A DNA stretch of 64,000 nt from Halomicronema sp. CCY15110 (GCF_016888165.1 NZ_JACSWC010000299.1:46193-110192); one strand, 5' to 3'; numbered from the stretch's first letter, positions 2-10,503 are shown. The notes: generated from the sequence alone by a model not told the origin. Numbers and translations: made by a program.

Positions 2-1039
2 ATCGAACGGAACTGCTGCGACTTGGGAAACCCGGTAGATGAGTTGGTCTGAGGGTAAGCACGCTAACACACGATTCAGGGTCTTAATTACAGGAAAGAA
101 TTGATATGAGTAAGCTAGGAGGGTATTCATATTATGGAGACCAATAGCCCAATCGTTTTGCAAGCCATAGGTTAATTGCTTAGAAATGCCTGGTAGCGCT
201 AAGAGCGTAATTTTGCCCAGGCCTAAGCGATGGTTAGATGAACCCATAAGAAACCCAATCGACCTGAGCAGCCAGGCATCAGGACGCATGATTATCACGC
301 TGACCGCTACGCTGAAAAACACGCTGACCGCCACGCCGAAAAACGCGCCGCTTGCCACGCCGAAAAACACGCCGAAAAACGCGCCGCCCGCCACGCCAAA
401 CGTCACGCCAAGTACTACGCCTGTCGCTACGCTGCCCGCCACGCTTAACGCCACGCCACCTGTCACACCTCCCACCGCGCCTGCAAACACGCCGACCGTC
501 ATCACTCCCGCCACCACTCCCGCCACCACTCCCGCCACGCCTTCCGCCACGAATCCTGACACGCTTCCTACCACGCCGCCCGCCACGCCAAACGTCACGC
601 CACCTACTACGCCGAACGCTACGCCGCCTGCAACGCCGAACGCCACGTTTCCCATCACGCCGCCCACCACGCCGCCCGTCACAGCGAACGCCACACCAAA
701 AAATACGCAGAACGCCATGATTCCCCAATTGATGGGGATGCGGAGCTGCTCAAGACCGATCACCACGCTCAAAGGTGTCACCACCGTAAGTAATAGCCCA
801 TGCAGCAGCAGTTGTCGTTGCACTGGGTTGTGGCGAAGAATTTCCCAGCCCTTGCGCCAGTTCATTTCTTTGTTTGGAATATAGCCCCTGCCAAAGGTAT
901 TGACATACCACCGCAACGCCTGCGGAAAGTAGAACACCCAGTACAGCAACCGTAGATAGTCCAGCGGGTTCCATAAGGAGAGGGGGCGCTTGAGTTTGGG
1001 GGCGAGGTCGAGTCGCGGGACTGCGGTGGGGCGAGGCAT
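2..1039 (-). CDS. Glycine-zipper-repeat membrane protein, 3' end beyond window start. Minus frame is open from stop-bounded position 1075 down to position 2. Candidate ATG at 1037-1039 (minus).
   Basis: Manual translation of the minus frame with codon low-ends at 2 mod 3. The frame upstream closes at 1076-1078 (TAG), which is the same stop that ends track ORF 1076..1270. No stop down to the window edge. N-term reads MPRPTAVPRLDLAPKLKRPLSLWNPLDYLRLLYWVFYFPQALRWY, followed by hydrophobic helices. Then ~35 tandem GVxGGVxF glycine-zipper-like units encoded by the 300-720 repeat, then a non-repetitive C-terminal part. Not in the ORF track because it is truncated at the edge. Confidence 0.5.
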   Translation of the reverse strand, partial: MPRPTAVPRLDLAPKLKRPLSLWNPLDYLRLLYWVFYFPQALRWYVNTFGRGYIPNKEMNWRKGWEILRHNPVQRQLLLHGLLLTVVTPLSVVIGLEQLRIPINWGIMAFCVFFGVAFAVTGGVVGGVMGNVAFGVAGGVAFGVVGGVTFGVAGGVVGSVSGFVAEGVAGVVAGVVAGVMTVGVFAGAVGGVTGGVALSVAGSVATGVVLGVTFGVAGGAFFGVFFGVASGAFFGVAVSVFFSVAVSVIIMRPDAWLLRSIGFLMGSSNHRLGLGKITLLALPGISKQLTYGLQNDWAIGLHNMNTLLAYSYQFFPVIKTLNRVLACLPSDQLIYRVSQVAAVPFD

Positions 1040-1097
1040 GGTGGGGAGTGGCTGGGTAGCAGGGTAGTTGGGTGGCTAGATGATTGGGTGCGAAGGC

Positions 1098-2384
1098 CTA
1101 GGTTTGGCGGTATTGGTTGTAGAGAGTGTGGCAGGCTTGGGTGAGGGCTTGGGGATTGCCGTTGGCGTCGTTGATGAGCTGGTCAATTTCGCGCTCGGAA
1201 AACTGAATCGTGCTGTTGGCCAAGCGGACGGCAATATAGGCACGGGCGGTATCTGGTGCCCAAGGGGCAATGGGCTGCTCTTGACAAATATTTTCGAAGG
1301 GGGAAACGGTGAGTTCTTGATTTCGGTCTGGAAACAACATGTCTAAAGACACTCTGGCTGCGATCACAATTTTTAGCGGCGCATCTTGGGTGTCGGCAAT
1401 GCCACGTAGCTGTTCTCGAATATTACGGGTAAATCCTGCTTGGGCAAAGCGTTCCACTTCATCCAGCAACAGCAAATAGGAATGGTTGGCTTTTTCTCGG
1501 TTCAGCTTGCGCACTAAGGCGCGGCCATTCAGCGTTTCGATCTTGATCGCGGTGCAGAGATCTTCAAAGAATTCCGCTTCCGTAAACACGTTGGTGAGGT
1601 CAAGAAAGATAGGAGTGCGATCAACAGTTAACCGTTCCGGGGCTTGGCGCATGAGGGCGCGCAGGAGCGAAGACTTCCCCGAATTATGCTCGCCAATCAG
1701 GGCCACGTTATGGTTCGTGTTCAGCAACTCGAACAGGGTATTGAGCAGCCGTTCACGGTCAAAAAACTGCTCAGGCTGTTCAATGCCGCCGTGCAGCGGA
1801 AAAAACGGATTGGTGGCGTCCTCGGGATTGTCGGCAAGGGCCGGGAATGACGGCTGACTGTCGGGCTTGGCGCGATCGGTTGCCTCATTTTCTGAGACCG
1901 CCTCTAAATTCAGCTCACCGAGAAAATTGGCGCGACGCGTGTAATAGTCCTTTCGCTGCTGCTCGTTACTGGCCAACCGTTCCAGAATAAGGGTCGCCAG
2001 CTGTTCGGGCGTTTTCTGATCCAATTCAATGAAGCCAGAGGCAGGGCTGAGCCCATCGGCAGTGGCATAGTCAAAGCGGCAGGGCATTACCCGTTCGCCG
2101 TCAGCTTTCGTCAGCAAGCCGTAGATCTGCACCCATTCCCAGCCAGTCCAGCGTTTCTGGTCGTAGTCTGGGCACAGCACCGGCACAATCAGAGCAGACT
2201 GTTCGCTGTAGAGTCGCGGCAAATAGAGGCCCAGGTCATAACGAGCAAATTCCGCCTCGCAATACTTGTCGTAGAGAATCTGCGCTTCGCCAAAATAGTC
2301 GGCCAGTAGTGCCGCTACCTGTTCGACAAAGTCGCGCTTTTCTCCTGCAAAGGAAAAGGCCACCCGAAATCGCTTGGTGCTCAT
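1098..2384 (-). CDS. TIR-like domain fused to a P-loop NTPase (AAA/STAND-like ATPase)
   Basis: N-term FRVAFSFAGEKRDFVEQVAALL...SALIVPVLCPDYDQKRWTGWEW has a TIR-like pattern (FxFxGE ... W..E). Walker A is ALIGEHNSGKSSLL and Walker B is YLLLLDEVE. The gene ends 58 bp upstream of the glycine-zipper ORF on the same strand. Confidence 0.7.
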   Translation of the reverse strand: MSTKRFRVAFSFAGEKRDFVEQVAALLADYFGEAQILYDKYCEAEFARYDLGLYLPRLYSEQSALIVPVLCPDYDQKRWTGWEWVQIYGLLTKADGERVMPCRFDYATADGLSPASGFIELDQKTPEQLATLILERLASNEQQRKDYYTRRANFLGELNLEAVSENEATDRAKPDSQPSFPALADNPEDATNPFFPLHGGIEQPEQFFDRERLLNTLFELLNTNHNVALIGEHNSGKSSLLRALMRQAPERLTVDRTPIFLDLTNVFTEAEFFEDLCTAIKIETLNGRALVRKLNREKANHSYLLLLDEVERFAQAGFTRNIREQLRGIADTQDAPLKIVIAARVSLDMLFPDRNQELTVSPFENICQEQPIAPWAPDTARAYIAVRLANSTIQFSEREIDQLINDANGNPQALTQACHTLYNQYRQT

Positions 2385-6401: not shown

Positions 6402-7178
6402 ATGCCATCTCCCGTTCAGACTTATCAATTACTGGCAACTAAAACCGACCACCAAGGGGTGCAGGTTGGGTTTATCGATCGCACCGAAGATGTCACGCAT
6501 TTTTTGACCGCGACGGGGTTAGATAAACCGCACCTGACCTTAGTCATTGTGGGCGGTGCCAGTGGCTTGGATAATGACCAGCAGACCCAGCTAGACGGGC
6601 TCTTTCATCGCGTCCTAGCGCCCCTAGCGGAAGAAATGCAGCTCTATGTTGTGGATGGCGGCACGGATGCAGGCGTCATGCGACTGATGGGACAGGCCCG
6701 CACAGCTATTAACGGGACTTTTCCGCTGATTGGGGTGGCCCCGCGATCGCTGGTCAGCTTGCCCGACCAACCCGCGACTCATCCCGACGCCTCCACCCTA
6801 GAACCGAACCATACGCACTGCCTGCTGGTCCCTGGCGAACAGTGGGGCGATGAATCTCGCTGGATTGCCGAGATTGCCACCCATTTGTCGGGCGAGCACG
6901 AGTCCATGACTATCTTGATCAATGGCGGTTCCGTGACCGTCAGCGATGCCTACGCCAGTGTGGCCGCTGGGCGGGAAATTGTGATTGTGGCGGGTACCGG
7001 ACGCATTGCCGACGACATTGTGCAAGCGCTACGCTACAAAGTCGTCGAAGGCAGAACCATTGAAGATCCCCGGCTCGCCAAACTAATTGACACCTCGGAC
7101 GACTTACTGACTGCGATCGATTTAGACAACCGTCCTGCCGATTTCATCCAAGATCTCAAAACTTTGCTCATGACCTAA
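6402..7178 (+). CDS. Rossmann-like SLOG/LOG-family domain protein (putative nucleotide/ligand-binding)
   Basis: Gly-rich strand-loop motifs LTLVIVGGASGLDND, YVVDGGTDAGVMRLMGQA and TILINGGSVTV are reminiscent of LOG/SLOG Rossmann folds. Lies 142 bp upstream of the TIR-WD40 gene on the same strand. Confidence 0.45.
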   Translation: MPSPVQTYQLLATKTDHQGVQVGFIDRTEDVTHFLTATGLDKPHLTLVIVGGASGLDNDQQTQLDGLFHRVLAPLAEEMQLYVVDGGTDAGVMRLMGQARTAINGTFPLIGVAPRSLVSLPDQPATHPDASTLEPNHTHCLLVPGEQWGDESRWIAEIATHLSGEHESMTILINGGSVTVSDAYASVAAGREIVIVAGTGRIADDIVQALRYKVVEGRTIEDPRLAKLIDTSDDLLTAIDLDNRPADFIQDLKTLLMT

Positions 7179-7320
7179 GCCTGCCAGGCATCATTGGCCA
7201 TTTGCCCACGGTTCAGTCAGAGCCACCCAGTCGGGCAAATTTCCTTCGATATGATAGGAGGCAAGGAGTTCCCGCCATGGGCCAGATTGGGATCGTGGTC
7301 CGTGGCCTCAGCAATCAGGA

Positions 7321-10300
7321 GTGCCCATGCCAGATGATGCGTTAGACGCGCTACTCAAAGGTGAACCGAGGAAGCGGCAGTCGCGCCTGCCAGGGCTCAA
7401 GGTGGCAGATATTTTAACCATGCCATCCGAACAGCAATCGCTAGTGAATTGGTTGCTGCGTCATTATGAAGCGAATGCTGAAACCATTGCCCAGAAGATC
7501 AATCAACCGCTGCCGCAAGTGCAATCGAGCCTGGATAACCTGATCCAGCAGGGATTACTTAAAACGATCAACCGTCAAGGCGCTACTCTTTATCGCGTCA
7601 AGCTAGCGCCGAAGTCGGGCCGACAAATGCCGACGGATGTCTGGCAGGTATTGGATCAAGACACTAAGCAGGCGAATGTCTTCATCTCTTACTCGCGGCG
7701 CAACAAGGAATTTGTGCAAGAACTGCACGGCGCGTTGGAGGCCACCAAACGCGAAGTCTGGGTCGATTGGGAAAATATTCCCGTCGCGGTGGACTGGTGG
7801 CAGGAAATTCAACTGGGCATTGAATTAGCCGATACCTTCGTCTTTGTGCTGAGTCCTGACTCTGTGTCCTCTAAGGTGTGTGGCCAGGAAATAGAAGAAG
7901 CTCTGAAGCACAACAAACGCCTGGTGCCCGTCATCTGCCAGGATGTGCAACCGGATCAGGTACATCCCGAACTGGCCCGCCTCAACTGGATTTTCTTACG
8001 CGCTCAAGACGACTTTCAACAAGGATTCAAAAACCTATTAGAAGCCCTAGACCAAGATTTAGACTACGTTCGCACCCATACACGCCTTCTCGTTCGGGCA
8101 CTGGAATGGGATCGCAACGGCCAGGATGGTAGCTATCTGCTGCGGGGAGCCGATCTCGATCGCGCCAACCACTACCTCGCCCAAGGCAAAGATCAGGAAC
8201 CGCGTCCCACTGCCCTGCACCATCAATATGTTATCGCCAGTGGCGAAGTCGAAGCCGCTGTCAGGGATCTCGAACTGAGACGCCAAAAGGCGGCGATGGC
8301 AGGGCAACAGCGGTGGTTGCAACTCGTCACGGCAATTTCGGTTTTGGCCGTGGCGATGGGCATCACTAGTTGGGGTCTATCGCGGCAGGCCCAAAGCGCC
8401 CAAAAGCGGGCTGAGCAAGCTCAACTCCGAGCCCTGAACCAGTCGGCGCAGGCGTTATTCCTGTCCGACCAACGGTTTGACGCCCTCTTGTCGGCGACCC
8501 AAGCGGGACAGCTCTTCCAATCTTTAGAGCCCGAATGGCAGACGCCTGAGCTGCGATCGCAAGTGCTCAGTGCGCTCCAGCAGTCGCTGTTCTGGATTCA
8601 AGAGCGCAATCGTTTAGAGGGACATACCGGCACCGTTTGGCAGGTCGCCTTTAGCCCCGATGAGCAAAAACTAGCTTCGGTCAGTGCCGATGGCGACATT
8701 CGCCTGTGGGGACTCGATGGCCAGCTCTTAAACGTGCTGGAATGTGACGGCTCCCCCTTGCTGGATGTCGCTTTTTCGGCCGATGGCGATCGCCTCGTGG
8801 CGGTTGATGATGACGGCTCGATACACTTATGGAGTTCGAATGGCATCCTACAGGGCACCTGGCAGGCCCACCAACAGCCCACCCGAGCCGTCGCCTTTGC
8901 GCCATCAGGCACCCAAATCGCCACTGCCAGCGAAGATGCCACCGTCAAAGTTTGGTCCACAGAGGGCGACTTAGTAGCCACCCTAGAGGGCGATATCGGG
9001 GGCTTTCAGGCGCTCTTGTGGACGGCTGACGACCAAATTATCGCCGGCGACGAACAAGGCAATATCTACGTTTGGGACGCTACCGGAGTCTTGATTAGCC
9101 AGTTCTCCAGTTCCTCTGAGGCGCTGATTGCCCTGGCCTTGAGTCCCGATGGGGCCACCCTAGCAGCCGTCGGGGACGATCGCCAGGTCAGGCTACACAA
9201 TCTCGCCGATCAGTCCCTGATCCGCACATTCCCCGCCCACAACGGTGCCATCTACAACGTGCAGTTCACCCCCGATGGCGAACAGCTAATCACCGTAGGT
9301 GACGATAAGGTCATTCGCCTGTGGCAGCTAGACGGTACGGCATCGGCTAACCTCGTCGGCCACACGGGCTTGATTGCGGCGCTCGCCATTAGCCCTGATG
9401 GCTTGATGATCGCCACCTCTGGCGGCGATCACGCCATTCGATTATGGGATTTACAGCGCGATAACCTGCACCTGCTGCTGGGTCATCAAGACTCCGTTAA
9501 TAGTGTGGCGATCGCCCCGACCGAAGACCTGATTGTCACGGGCGGGCGCGATGGCACGGTGCGTCTCTGGCAGGAATCGGGCACGCCCCTCAACACGCTA
9601 ACCGGCCACGACAGAGCCGTCAATGCGGTGGCCTTTAGCCCCGATGGTGAACTCGTAGCCTCTGCGGGGGCCGATGGCACCGTGCGCCTCTGGCAAGATG
9701 TCCAGTCCAACACCCCGACCGCTCAAGTCCTGACAGGGCACGTGGGAGCCGTCAACAATGTCGCCTTTAGCCCCGATGGTGAGCTCGTGGCTTCCGTCGG
9801 CGAAGACCACACTCTCCGCTTGTGGCGACCCGATGGCCGCTTAGTGACCACCATCGAAGAAGCTCACCGAGATGGAGCCTTTGGCGTCGCCTTTAGTCCC
9901 GATGGGCAACAAATTGTGACCAGCGGCTGGGATCACCTGGCGAAAATCTGGCCCGTTGCCGACATCGACCAGGCCAAGCCGCAAATTTTAGCCGGCCACC
10001 AAGGGTGGGTGCTCGATGCTCAGTTCAGTCCGGATGGAGCCCTGATCGCCACCGCCAGTTACGACAATTCAGTACGGCTTTGGCAGGCCAGTACGGGCGA
10101 ACCGTTGACCACCCTGCAGGGCCATAGGGATGGAGTGTTATCGGTGGCATTTACCCCCAGTGGCCAAAACATTGTTACCGCGAGCAACGACAACTCCATT
10201 CGCATTTGGGACCTAGAGGGTCGAACCGTCTCGACCCTTTCCGGGCATACCCAAGGCGTGAACGCAGTCGCAGTCGACCCCAAAGAGGGCTATGTGGTGT

Positions 10301-10503
10301 CCGCCAGCAGTGATGGCCGGGGCCTGATTTGGGAACGTGATGGCATTGAAGATATTGCCACCTCGCTAGCGAGTAGCTGTGACTGGCTAGCGGATTACCT
10401 CGCCCACAACCGCCAAGATGACCCGACGCTGCAGACGCTCTGCCAGGCACCAGAGGCCGATACAGCAGTCGGTACGGCGACAACCGTCACAGACACACCC
10501 TGA
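7321..10503 (+). CDS. Winged-helix + TIR domain + WD40-repeat protein
   Basis: TIR motif ANVFISYSRRNKEFVQEL...WVDWENIPVAVDWWQEIQLGIE...VFVLSPDSVSSKVCGQEIEEA. A hydrophobic segment near residue 330 follows. After it come more than 12 WD40 repeats (GH...WD patterns such as LEGHTGTVWQVAFSPD ... IRLWD). N-terminal HTH-like region SEQQSLVNWLLRHYEANAETIAQKINQPLPQVQSSLDNLIQQGLL. Confidence 0.8.
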   Translation: MPMPDDALDALLKGEPRKRQSRLPGLKVADILTMPSEQQSLVNWLLRHYEANAETIAQKINQPLPQVQSSLDNLIQQGLLKTINRQGATLYRVKLAPKSGRQMPTDVWQVLDQDTKQANVFISYSRRNKEFVQELHGALEATKREVWVDWENIPVAVDWWQEIQLGIELADTFVFVLSPDSVSSKVCGQEIEEALKHNKRLVPVICQDVQPDQVHPELARLNWIFLRAQDDFQQGFKNLLEALDQDLDYVRTHTRLLVRALEWDRNGQDGSYLLRGADLDRANHYLAQGKDQEPRPTALHHQYVIASGEVEAAVRDLELRRQKAAMAGQQRWLQLVTAISVLAVAMGITSWGLSRQAQSAQKRAEQAQLRALNQSAQALFLSDQRFDALLSATQAGQLFQSLEPEWQTPELRSQVLSALQQSLFWIQERNRLEGHTGTVWQVAFSPDEQKLASVSADGDIRLWGLDGQLLNVLECDGSPLLDVAFSADGDRLVAVDDDGSIHLWSSNGILQGTWQAHQQPTRAVAFAPSGTQIATASEDATVKVWSTEGDLVATLEGDIGGFQALLWTADDQIIAGDEQGNIYVWDATGVLISQFSSSSEALIALALSPDGATLAAVGDDRQVRLHNLADQSLIRTFPAHNGAIYNVQFTPDGEQLITVGDDKVIRLWQLDGTASANLVGHTGLIAALAISPDGLMIATSGGDHAIRLWDLQRDNLHLLLGHQDSVNSVAIAPTEDLIVTGGRDGTVRLWQESGTPLNTLTGHDRAVNAVAFSPDGELVASAGADGTVRLWQDVQSNTPTAQVLTGHVGAVNNVAFSPDGELVASVGEDHTLRLWRPDGRLVTTIEEAHRDGAFGVAFSPDGQQIVTSGWDHLAKIWPVADIDQAKPQILAGHQGWVLDAQFSPDGALIATASYDNSVRLWQASTGEPLTTLQGHRDGVLSVAFTPSGQNIVTASNDNSIRIWDLEGRTVSTLSGHTQGVNAVAVDPKEGYVVSASSDGRGLIWERDGIEDIATSLASSCDWLADYLAHNRQDDPTLQTLCQAPEADTAVGTATTVTDTP

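Follow-up and report, generated by a model that had tools for sequence, protein, structure and literature searches.

A conserved two-gene cassette of filamentous cyanobacteria predicted to encode a TIR-nSTAND1 NTPase and a membrane-anchored ATPase

Gene organization at the window edge

The window analyzed here is a 64,000-nt stretch of the Halomicronema sp. CCY15110 genome (NZ_JACSWC010000299.1:46193-110192). Judged by sequence comparison, its edge is a conserved two-gene cassette of filamentous cyanobacteria, present as the whole first gene (gene A) and the 5' part of the second (gene B), both on the minus strand (Table 1). The gene A ORF has 428 codons and ends in a TAG stop at 1098-1100. 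Its product is 100% identical to WP_204139272.1, an already annotated protein of Halomicronema sp. CCY15110. From the stop at 1076-1078 onward, the gene B frame stays open as far as base 2; its first start is the ATG at 1039-1037. A first-pass annotation, made from the sequence alone, had reported a long minus-strand ORF 58 bp downstream of gene A that stays open to the window edge, and this description was accurate. No terminator-like site was found in the 58-nt spacer, so the two genes are probably co-transcribed.

Table 1. Positions of the cassette features in the window, counted from its first letter
Feature	Position	Strand	Basis
Gene B, the 346 codons inside the window	2..1039	minus	translation, homologs
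Start of the conserved, predicted cytoplasmic all-alpha domain of B, residues 252-346	2..286	minus	
TP-rich ORF of 232 codons, shadow ORF antisense to the Gly/Val repeat	186..884	plus	no family match, GC pattern
Gly/Val tetrad-repeat (glycine-zipper) segment of B, residues 106-251 (146 residues)	287..724	minus	periodicity, composition
First, ordinary TM helix of B (predicted), residues 76-97	749..814	minus	hydropathy
N-terminal motif of B, residues 8-47: PRLDLAPKLKRPLSLWNPLDYLRLLYWVFYFPQALRWYVN	899..1018	minus	family alignment
A-B spacer, 58 nt	1040..1097	minus	sequence
Gene A (428 aa): TIR, linker, sensor-less nSTAND1 STAND NTPase (predicted)	1098..2384	minus	ORF, Pfam
P-loop NTPase module of A, residues 203-428	1101..1778	minus	nSTAND1 match, motifs
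Walker B of A, LLLLDE, residues 304-309	1458-1475	minus	sequence
Walker A of A, GEHNSGKS, residues 231-238	1671-1694	minus	sequence
Disordered linker of A (predicted), residues 149-202	1779..1940	minus	AF2 pLDDT <50 for residues 152-202
TIR domain of A, residues 1-148	1941..2384	minus	TIR_2 match
WTGWEW motif of A, residues 79-84, with candidate catalytic Glu E83	E83 codon 2136-2138	minus	homolog alignment
FSFAGE motif in the TIR of A	2340-2357	minus	sequence

Gene A: a TIR domain on an nSTAND1 NTPase

The TIR-like N-terminal domain and Walker A/B ATPase that had been noticed in gene A are both borne out by Pfam matches and by the motifs listed in Table 1. TIR_2 (PF13676) scored 27.0 bits on the whole protein, just below the cutoff of 28, and 30.8 bits, above the cutoff, when residues 1-148 were scanned alone. 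PF13676 is listed in the precomputed Pfam annotation of the database protein identical to A, and TIR_2 is matched by 13 of 13 close homologs. It was the only Pfam match of the N-domain, and DUF1863, suggested beside it in the first-pass annotation, was rejected. Weak PDB profile matches to this domain are mostly to TIR domains, AbTIR among them. In the AF2 model of gene A (pLDDT 84.4), residues 6-140 form alternating strands and helices (alpha/beta) with pLDDT mostly >85; the Foldseek list for the model is taken up by NTPase-module matches, with no structural TIR match among them. E83 is invariant across the 13 close homologs, nearly invariant across 42, and aligns with the W..E motif of the solved TIR chain 7uwg. 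From the profile matches and alignments the N-domain is assigned as a true TIR, and it is likely an NAD+-cleaving enzyme with E83 as the putative catalytic residue. In other phyla, TIR cassettes with 60-79% identity to the one in the window occur as fusions to NACHT, NB-ARC, FGE or SIR2. P0111-type proteins, considered as members of the A-B pair, were rejected: only the TIR cassette is in common, and they belong to a DGR/NACHT/FGE locus.

The linker of A ends with a family-invariant lead motif, NPFFP..G, in which, across 67 A homologs, P193 and F194 never vary and N192, P196 and G199 hardly do. The module that follows matched Pfam nSTAND1 (PF20703) over residues 203-427 with 47.8 bits (cutoff 27.1), covering positions 12-239 of the 379 in the profile; AAA_22 was also matched. 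Walker A and Walker B are intact, and G236, K237, S238 and D308 are invariant among homologs. The module consists of a nucleotide-binding domain and a helical lid, and the chain ends at residue 428. Neither a winged helix nor a C-terminal sensor or repeat region was found in A by the nSTAND1 profile, the AF2 model or Foldseek, which leaves it short of a full NOD module. The best Foldseek matches of the NTPase are PF01637-type ATPases (2qen and 2fna) and ORC/Cdc6. PADLOC-DB v2 gave P-loop-level matches to A (LeoA, PDC-S01) and no match to a system model. The pairing had not been placed in any described family in the first reading; gene A itself belongs to nSTAND1, the family (PF20703) described by Kaur, Iyer, Burroughs & Aravind (2021, PMC8195603), and UniRef annotates it so.

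Gene B: start of a member of a predicted membrane-anchored ATPase family

Residues 8-47 of B keep all invariant columns of the family motif PRLDLAPKLxRPLSLWNPLDYLRLLYWVFYFPQALRWY. This motif, which holds the majority of the invariant columns in the B family alignment, was also the scan pattern by which the family was found. Its pLDDT is 85-97 in the AF2 model of the closest B homolog. The window shows the family layout of a membrane segment (residues 76-251) followed by a helical domain with RPxNWL ... WLRQDW ... QF(I/F)PV (252-346), the landmarks here being RPDAWL... QNDW ... NTLLAYSYQFFPV. The counterpart of TM helix 76-97 in the P0001 AF2 model is helix 71-97. The N-terminal motif and the ATPase of B are both predicted to be cytoplasmic because the N-region is K/R-rich and the number of predicted helices (6) is even.

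The minus frame of B has 98 database homologs and 305 tblastn-confirmed relatives in species-representative genomes, and the family comprises 257 cluster representatives at E<=1e-30. No copy of the window's B at >58% identity was found in the species-representative genome set and no protein identical to residues 1-105 in the homolog search; an exact 60-nt scan of metagenome contigs for the locus gave no match. Complete relatives are 850-1000 aa long and continue into an ATPase_2/AAA_16 P-loop domain and a winged helix. This C-terminal module (GHRRMGKT) and the winged helix are present in 74 complete relatives, which does not agree with the earlier view of B as a stand-alone membrane-disrupting protein. 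The ATPase module is missing or split off in a few relatives (P0003, 535 aa, and Okeania), and the window's B, continued beyond the edge, might resemble P0003 in being short and having no ATPase. In Leptolyngbya SIO1E4, a B that stops at about 530 aa precedes another B paralog of full length. The NTPase module of A is a distant relative of that of B, with which it shares the lead motif NP[FY]..G...F.GRE.

B matched no Pfam family at E<=1 and no NCBIfam or PADLOC model, and the SLATT and Gly-zipper models proposed for it in the first pass were rejected; of the profile searches suggested there, TIR_2 on A was the one that gave a match. The first ~500 residues had no counterpart among the Pfam, NCBIfam and PADLOC models or, by PDB sequence search, among solved structures. 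Full-length relatives gave weak PDC-S27 matches over the P-loop only in PADLOC-DB v2, and the A-B pair matched nothing beyond P-loop level in NCBIfam or PADLOC. On its alignments, B belongs to a family of membrane-anchored ATPases that has no name yet, and the window contains its N-terminal part.

The B frame crosses a repeat that is read on the plus strand as a 232-codon ORF. B could in principle be a GC-rich tandem-repeat artifact or a decayed pseudogene, with the plus ORF, or nothing, as the real gene. The length of that ORF speaks for such a reading, as do the codon-usage log-likelihood inside the repeat, which does not separate the strands, and the absence of this genome's B from the protein database. 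Against it, conserved non-repeat domains lie in the minus frame on either side of the repeat with no stop between them, and this frame is the one with the genomic relatives and cluster representatives counted above. GC by codon position is 0.62/0.45/0.64 in the minus frame, which fits the neighboring genes, and 0.47/0.67/0.66 in the plus ORF, which does not. An antisense frame over the repeat recurs in B homologs with an inconsistent length (48 to 274 codons), as is expected of a compositional shadow ORF. Since it also had no family match, the plus ORF was rejected as a gene. The artifact or pseudogene explanation is extremely improbable and is contradicted already; the glycine-zipper frame of the first-pass annotation stands.

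Pairing of A and B in other cyanobacteria

A homolog of A lies directly upstream of B on the same strand in 78 of 84 B copies from other cyanobacteria, and the co-conservation on which the first reading had been made to depend is thus real. Of these 78 pairs, 73 are spaced by no more than 673 bp, and in about 29 the stop codon of A overlaps the start codon of B; the gaps in homologous pairs run from -4 to a few hundred nt. All 67 B-adjacent members of the A family matched nSTAND1 (PF20703). Across 81 loci, only the A and B families are conserved. Two independent pairs may be cited: a TIR-type A with a 905-aa B, and a full-length B (P0219, 50% identical) with an nSTAND1 gene 24 nt upstream. No description of the A-B pair was found in the literature searched.

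About 300 cyanobacterial species genomes carry the cassette, and the hosts of B relatives are almost all filamentous or colonial cyanobacteria. A multicellular habit has been reported for comparable conflict systems (PMC7159879, PMC8195603), and we count this match for a conflict role. In Nostocales, the A-B pair sits in conserved housekeeping synteny. No B relatives were found on 2.9 million viral contigs, and carriage of the pair by phages was rejected on that basis. At a distance of 4 kb is a second TIR-WD40 locus, which includes a SLOG gene.

Variable parts of the two proteins

At least 10 alternative N-domains occur on A, including TIR, CHAT/caspase-like (15), trypsin (3), HEPN and HTH-like domains. 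Death/immunity-type enzymes occupy the A N-terminus in 21 of 67 loci; in 42 of 67 the N-domain is small and helical or HTH-like, not an enzyme. By these domain assignments the TIR is one of several A N-domains and not a defining part of the A-B pair. As an observation, then, the first-pass annotation is confirmed, and its interpretation is partly supported: the coupling of an NTPase gene to a membrane protein gene holds, its definition by a TIR does not. Whole A alleles differ (~50% identity) beside B ATPases that are 92-96% identical. Co-variation between A and the B N-region (rho 0.40) was not taken as evidence of contact, because physical linkage alone explains it equally well.

The repeat of B consists of 27% Gly and 30% Val (residues 119-250), with Gly autocorrelations of 0.50, 0.44, 0.37 and 0.48 at lags 4, 8, 12 and 16. 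It holds 23 GxxxG and 15 GxxxGxxxG motifs and a single charged residue in 132 residues. TRF reported periods of 12, 24 and 48 nt at 296-698. The figure of approximately 35 tandem units given earlier is right for 4-residue units (~36) and too high for the 8-residue GVxGGVxF units to which it had been applied (~18). The 4-residue periodicity is family-wide (median lag-4 autocorrelation 0.52), and the uncharged membrane stretch varies from 27 to 176 residues across the family. Two variants, P0087 and P0038, are nearly without a membrane segment. Between close orthologs this segment is 40-69% identical with many indels, compared with 90-97% for the ATPase, and dN/dS is ~0.6-2.0 in the segment and 0.09-0.3 in the ATPase; repeat slippage and misalignment could inflate the segment value. 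The membrane segment is hypervariable and is the fastest-evolving part of the protein.

Comparison with known systems

In Avs, bNACHT and eukaryotic NLRs, effectors cluster on oligomerization, and paired NLRs divide the labor between sensor and helper. Avs and bNACHT each consist of one protein that carries a large C-terminal sensor. The A-B pair resembles Avs, bNACHT and the paired eukaryotic NLRs (NAIP-NLRC4) in its effector-NTPase logic and in TIR as a common output (for the bacterial NLR-like defense context, see PMC13581612). Unlike Avs and bNACHT, neither A nor B has a large sensor, one partner is a predicted integral membrane protein, and no PADLOC model was matched.

A resembles nSTAND1 proteins in matching the model, in its effector-NTPase order, in its TIR, caspase-like and trypsin N-domains and in its occurrence in multicellular bacteria. 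As described (PMC8195603), nSTAND1 proteins are receptors made of one long chain that ends in an FGS/lectin-type or repeat sensor, and they are often DGR-linked, whereas A stops after the helical lid and is coupled to a separate membrane ATPase gene. The paired nSTAND2 two-gene operon (Kaur et al., 2021, Fig. 6C) is similar as a mobile unit of two STAND NTPases with variable effector fusions. It differs from the present pair, which combines nSTAND1 with an ATPase_2/MNS-like module, and its description (Kaur et al., 2021, PMC8195603) includes neither a membrane domain nor a glycine-zipper repeat.

The EACC1 system has a constant membrane component with a Gly-rich, small-residue TM segment, proposed to be a membrane sensor (Kaur et al., 2020, PMC7159879). 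As in EACC1, a constant membrane part is paired here with a variable effector-bearing protein, and the system is enriched in multicellular bacteria. EACC1 has a single TM helix with short flanks, no NTPase and a caspase-based partner, and is found mainly in actinobacteria (PMC7159879). For B, by contrast, about six helices are predicted, along with a helical domain of 250 aa and an ATPase of its own; gene order and partner differ. No sequence relation between B and EACC1 was found, which places B outside that system. EACC1 and nSTAND2 were rejected as identities of the pair and kept as analogies. Finally, B resembles glycine-zipper (GxxxGxxxG) membrane proteins in the dense GxxxG periodicity of a hydrophobic, uncharged segment; unlike in those proteins, the array extends much further (146 residues), varies in length and is part of an ATPase-linked protein, with no match to any Pfam Gly-zipper model.

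Possible function

We read the cassette, with a confidence somewhat better than even, as a two-NTPase, membrane-anchored, NLR-like conflict module with the TIR of A as its output. Probably it serves cell suicide or immunity and has not been described before. A would be a sensor-less NLR-like protein composed of an N-terminal output domain, a flexible linker and an nSTAND1 P-loop switch. B would be the constant partner, with an invariant cytoplasmic N-motif, about six membrane helices, bundled and built mainly from GVxx tetrads (GxxxG zippers), a helical domain in the cytoplasm and, in complete relatives, a second STAND-class ATPase (ATPase_2/AAA_16) and winged helix. Located in the membrane, B may respond through its fast-evolving intramembrane segment or its helical domain to a membrane-associated cue, for which phage entry or lysis proteins and envelope damage are candidates. 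The NTPase modules of A and B would then co-assemble and thereby cluster the A N-domains, and the clustered TIRs would hydrolyze NAD+, with arrest or death of the affected filament cell as the outcome. The sequence analysis shows which domains are present, that the genes are adjacent, that A exchanges its N-domains in a modular way and that the membrane segment of B is hypervariable; a role in conflict or immunity, hetero-oligomerization and the direction of signaling (B senses, A executes) are inferred.

We count the swapping of A N-domains, the replacement of A alleles beside near-identical B, the likeness of the TIR to cassettes from other phyla and the TIR-WD40/SLOG neighbor for a conflict role. 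For B as the sensor we count that its membrane segment is divergent, yet has kept its composition and 4-residue periodicity throughout the family. Canonical C-terminal STAND sensor repeats were found in neither A nor B, which counts against the conflict reading, as do the lack of NCBIfam or PADLOC matches above P-loop level and the negative result on viral contigs. The helical or HTH-like N-domains of the 42 loci imply that the executioner, if any, lies elsewhere in those loci. Amyloid-motif signaling of the fungal/bacterial NLR/Bell type was also considered; an informal look at the A C-terminus and the B N-terminus revealed no shared short motif.

B might instead be the executioner itself. 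Activated by the TIR-NTPase or by its own ATPase, its glycine-zipper helices would oligomerize into a pore and depolarize the cell, with A as sensor or regulator. We consider this rather unlikely. Glycine zippers line several pore-forming proteins, and the motif density of the B repeat, with one charged residue, would suit such a role. A STAND effector is usually N-terminal to the NTPase, where the membrane domain of B sits, and killing by B would complete those 42 of 67 systems in which A has no obvious enzymatic effector. Against this, bona fide effector domains (TIR, CHAT, trypsin, HEPN) stand at the effector position of A, and A has no sensor domain through which it could serve as a receptor. 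In sequence as well as in length, no part of B is less conserved than the membrane segment, and variants nearly without it exist. This segment is the fastest-evolving part of B, for which a role as sensor or target is at least as fitting as one as a pore. In the AF2 model it forms long helices packed in a bundle, not an amphipathic pore former.

The pair could also serve membrane-linked signal transduction or transcription control, like the MalT/AfsR-like STAND regulators, and not conflict at all. B would report the state of the envelope or membrane, an HTH-like N-domain of A would be the output, and the TIR, CHAT and trypsin forms would be derived. Most A N-domains are indeed small and helical or HTH-like (two match GerE/sigma70_r4 and six weakly resemble Cro/C1 HTH), and the winged helix at the end of B matched HTH_IclR in one member (E 3e-4). 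The Nostocales synteny and the strong purifying selection on the B ATPase point the same way and are less typical of mobile defense genes. A winged helix is, however, standard in the STAND module and does not require DNA binding. In the window's own A, the catalytic motif of the TIR is intact, death/immunity-type enzymes stand at the same position in 21 of 67 A proteins, and allele replacement of A beside near-identical B together with a hypervariable membrane segment would be unexpected of a housekeeping regulator. We consider the regulatory explanation distinctly improbable.

Under the preferred conflict-module reading, the job that known bacterial STAND/NLR switches mostly perform as single large proteins with soluble sensors is split between two NTPases. 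The fast-evolving, length-polymorphic glycine-zipper anchor of B has no counterpart in Pfam, PADLOC or solved structures. If it is an immune or cell-death module, the cassette would add a membrane-sensing branch to bacterial NLR biology, represent a compact analog of eukaryotic sensor/helper NLR pairs and provide a testable programmed-cell-death candidate in multicellular cyanobacteria. For experiments, the exchange of outputs (TIR, caspase-like, trypsin, HEPN, HTH) on a framework that stays constant is a handy natural series.

A more specific proposal, quite unlikely in our estimate, is that the GxxxG helix array of B forms an intramembrane recognition surface that packs against foreign membrane proteins (for example phage holins, injection or exclusion proteins) and switches on A via the B ATPase. 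The array would be diversified by slippage, with the 12-nt repeat as the unit. If this were true, the pair would be a bacterial sensor/helper NLR pair that senses inside the lipid bilayer. For B as the sensor we count that its membrane segment is divergent, yet has kept its composition and 4-residue periodicity throughout the family.

Gene A encodes a TIR domain and an nSTAND1 NTPase

In a database search, the product of gene A was 100% identical to WP_204139272.1 of Halomicronema sp. CCY15110 (order Nodosilineales, cyanobacteria), labeled "AAA family ATPase" by NCBI and "nSTAND1 domain-containing NTPase" by UniRef. Residues 203-427 match positions 12-239 of the 379-position Pfam nSTAND1 profile (47.8 bits, cutoff 27.1), and AAA_22 is also matched. 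Pfam TIR_2 scored 27.0 bits on the whole protein (cutoff 28) and 30.8 bits on residues 1-148 by themselves; 13/13 close homologs of this N-domain match TIR_2. The profile search against PDB gave weak matches, mostly to TIR domains (AbTIR, L6, SNC1, and PdTIR), in which WTGWEW of A aligns with the W..E motif of a solved TIR. E83 shows little or no variation among homologs. On this evidence the N-domain, called TIR-like in the first-pass annotation, is a TIR domain, and it is probably an NADase. The same TIR cassette recurs at 60-79% identity in other phyla, fused to NACHT, NB-ARC, FGE-sulfatase, SIR2 or WD40.

In the AF2 model (pLDDT 84.4) the N-domain is alpha/beta, residues 152-202 form a disordered linker, and a P-loop domain with a short helical lid makes up the rest; there is neither a winged helix nor any repeat. 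A belongs to nSTAND1 by family model but differs from described members in lacking the winged helix and sensor part. Foldseek neighbors of the C-terminal half are PF01637-type archaeal ATPases (2qen, 2fna) and ORC/Cdc6. Walker A (GEHNSGKS, residues 231-238) and Walker B (LLLLDE, residues 304-309) are intact. Directly before the NTPase domain there is an NPF.P..G motif (residues 192-199, DNA ~1788..1811), (nearly) invariant in an alignment of 67/67 A proteins.

Features of the gene pair and of a nearby locus (window coordinates; residues are those of B)
Feature	Position	Strand	Basis or remark
Gene A, 428 aa	1098..2384	minus	ORF call; stop TAG 1098-1100
A-B spacer, 58 nt	between A stop and B ATG	minus	sequence
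Gene B, 346 codons	ATG 1039-1037, open to base 2	minus	first start codon of open frame
B motif PRLDLAPKLKRPLSLWNPLDYLRLLYWVFYFPQALRWYVN	residues 8-47	minus	translation
B ordinary hydrophobic helix	residues 76-97	minus	hydropathy
B GVxx-type tetrad repeat, 146 residues	residues 106-251	minus	periodicity and composition
B conserved-domain start, RPDAWL ... QNDW ... LLAYSYQFFPV	after repeat	minus	translation
Prokaryotic SLOG (LSDAT_prok) gene	6402..7178	plus	domain search
1060-aa protein, TIR_2 (residues 120-240) + WD40 propellers	7321..10503	plus	directly after SLOG gene

Gene B and its family

The A-B spacer contains no terminator-like site. An 8-nt tandem repeat, GCTGGGTA (3.4 copies, 1051..1077), is found in it just upstream of the B start. 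The visible 346 residues of B hold four elements (N-motif, hydrophobic helix, tetrad repeat, and conserved-domain start) and gave no match in Pfam, NCBIfam or PADLOC. Database homolog searches found no protein identical to B, which suggests that the gene is unannotated or incomplete in the Halomicronema sp. CCY15110 assembly. Gly and Val account for 27% and 30% of the repeat, which has a single charged residue; it contains 23 GxxxG and 15 GxxxGxxxG motifs, its Gly autocorrelation is ~0.5 at lags 4, 8, 12, and 16, and its DNA has periods of 12, 24, and 48 nt. The earlier count of about 35 glycine-zipper units is right for 4-residue units.

A plus-strand ORF (186..884) runs antisense to the repeat and had been named as a possible refuter of the B frame. 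It has no family match in Pfam and NCBIfam searches, its GC-by-codon-position pattern is wrong for a gene, and antisense frames in B homologs have very uneven open lengths (48-274 codons). It was rejected as a shadow ORF, and the minus frame of B stands.

Protein databases yielded 98 homologs of B, tblastn confirmed 305 relatives in species-representative genomes, and a search of clustered proteins gave 257 representatives at E<=1e-30. With few exceptions the hosts are cyanobacteria of filamentous or colonial habit, among them Nostoc, Scytonema, Calothrix, Microcoleus, Symploca, Okeania, Coleofasciculus, and Microcystis. When complete, members reach 850-1000 aa, and their later part holds a P-loop module of the ATPase_2/AAA_16/AAA_35 kind (GHRRMGKT) as well as a winged helix; the homolog P0219, 50% identical to the window B, has 922 aa. 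No Pfam or NCBIfam model covers the first ~500 residues of the family. There are also a few short or split members. Leptolyngbya sp. SIO1E4 (L001 6694..12515) has two B paralogs in tandem behind a TIR-nSTAND1 gene, the first of 535 aa without ATPase and the second a full 853-aa copy. At the Okeania loci (L002 4260..10635; L072) two overlapping genes make up B, one for the membrane part (502 aa) and one for the ATPase_2 part (379 aa); ~2.5 kb with three to four small ORFs (300, 100, 45, and 102 aa) separates A from B there. Dozens of B-family entries in the database are fragments only 90-180 aa long, labeled "ATP-binding protein, partial", and therefore contigs or gene calls often run out at the Gly/Val repeat or shortly after entering it. 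Short-read assemblies seem to break at the repeat, and the true frequency of the family may be hidden by this.

A and B are conserved as a pair

Of 84 B copies (82 loci, one of them a duplicate), 78 have a same-strand A-type nSTAND1 gene upstream, within 673 bp in 73 cases and with overlapping stop/start codons in ~29. Three of the six copies without upstream A are at contig ends. ORF clustering over all loci found A and B as the only conserved families, the remaining neighbors reflecting lineage-specific synteny; the pairing noticed in the first pass is thus borne out. Independent look-ups agree with this: P0219 has an nSTAND1 gene 24 nt upstream, and a 905-aa B follows another TIR-nSTAND1 gene, whose product shares 41% identity with A. 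Oscillatoria sp. PCC 10802 (L015 9980..17610) carries two full-length B copies 2.5 kb apart, with A directly upstream of the second only. The NTPase modules of A and B are distantly related (25% identity, E 7e-4) and have a common lead motif, NP[FY]..G...F.GRE; the A-type lead motif recurs as NPY..G.P ahead of the B ATPase domain. The pair has no PADLOC v2 model, was found on no viral contig, and no description of it was found in the literature searched.

Variable parts of the pair and possible roles

The architecture fits what Kaur et al. (PMC7159879, PMC8195603) described as "conflict systems of multicellular bacteria", with which it shares an NTP-dependent switch, a core that stays constant, exchangeable death/immunity-type outputs and filamentous hosts. 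Because of this fit we read the pair, with slightly better than even confidence, as a two-NTPase, NLR-like module, with B as the presumed constant partner, anchored in the membrane, and A as the presumed output carrier without a sensor, the output here being TIR. The pair resembles, and is not identical to, the paired-nSTAND2 operon (two STAND genes), the EACC1 system (a constant TM component rich in small residues, proposed as membrane sensor) and eukaryotic sensor/helper NLR pairs (labor split between two NLR-type proteins).

The NTPase core of A is constant (nSTAND1 in 67/67 A proteins) and carries at least 10 unrelated types of N-domain: a ~120-aa helical, HTH-like type (24), CHAT/caspase-like (15), a second helical type (10), Cro/C1-like (6), trypsin (3), LuxR-type (2), TIR (2) and HEPN (1); a few proteins have none. 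The two TIR domains, of the window copy and Leptolyngbya SIO1E4, are unrelated in sequence, and therefore this chassis gained a TIR on two occasions. If the glycine-zipper bundle of B were itself a pore-forming executioner, the direction of the first-pass annotation, this would account for the many A proteins that lack an enzymatic N-domain; we consider such a role rather unlikely. At Nostoc loci with B ATPases 92-96% identical, the adjoining A can be a different allele, with ~50% identity in the NTPase and another N-type.

Close B orthologs are 90-97% identical in the ATPase, ~80-99% in the N-region, ~75-91% in the helical domain and ~40-69%, with many indels, in the membrane repeat. By the Nei-Gojobori method, dN/dS is 0.09-0.3 in the ATPase and ~0.6-2.0 in the repeat (dN 0.15-0.40), where alignment ambiguity may inflate the values. 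The uncharged stretch ranges from 27 to 176 residues, the window B having the longest seen; repeat composition and 4-residue periodicity are kept family-wide (median lag-4 autocorrelation 0.52). Since the membrane segment of B evolves fastest and the N-domain of A is swapped as a cassette, as in NLR logic (variable sensor, modular effector), we favor by inference B as the sensing/scaffolding component and A as the executor. Strong purifying selection on the B ATPase, the mostly HTH-like N-domains of A and the synteny conserved in Nostocales support a non-conflict reading, a MalT-like membrane-linked regulator pair; the allelic turnover of A and its variants with TIR, CHAT, trypsin, and HEPN argue against it, and we regard it as less likely, indeed improbable. 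The interest of the pair rests mainly on the membrane-embedded hypervariable element of B.

Other loci

P0111 (442 aa; L084 437..11624, metagenome-assembled genome GCA_945875845.1) is 37% identical to A over A's full length, with only a faint TIR_2 match on record. Its locus includes a diversity-generating retroelement with reverse transcriptase, an HRDC accessory gene and two TIR-NACHT-FGE-sulfatase proteins. In the window, a second conflict-type locus (6402..10503, plus strand) is found 4 kb from the pair.
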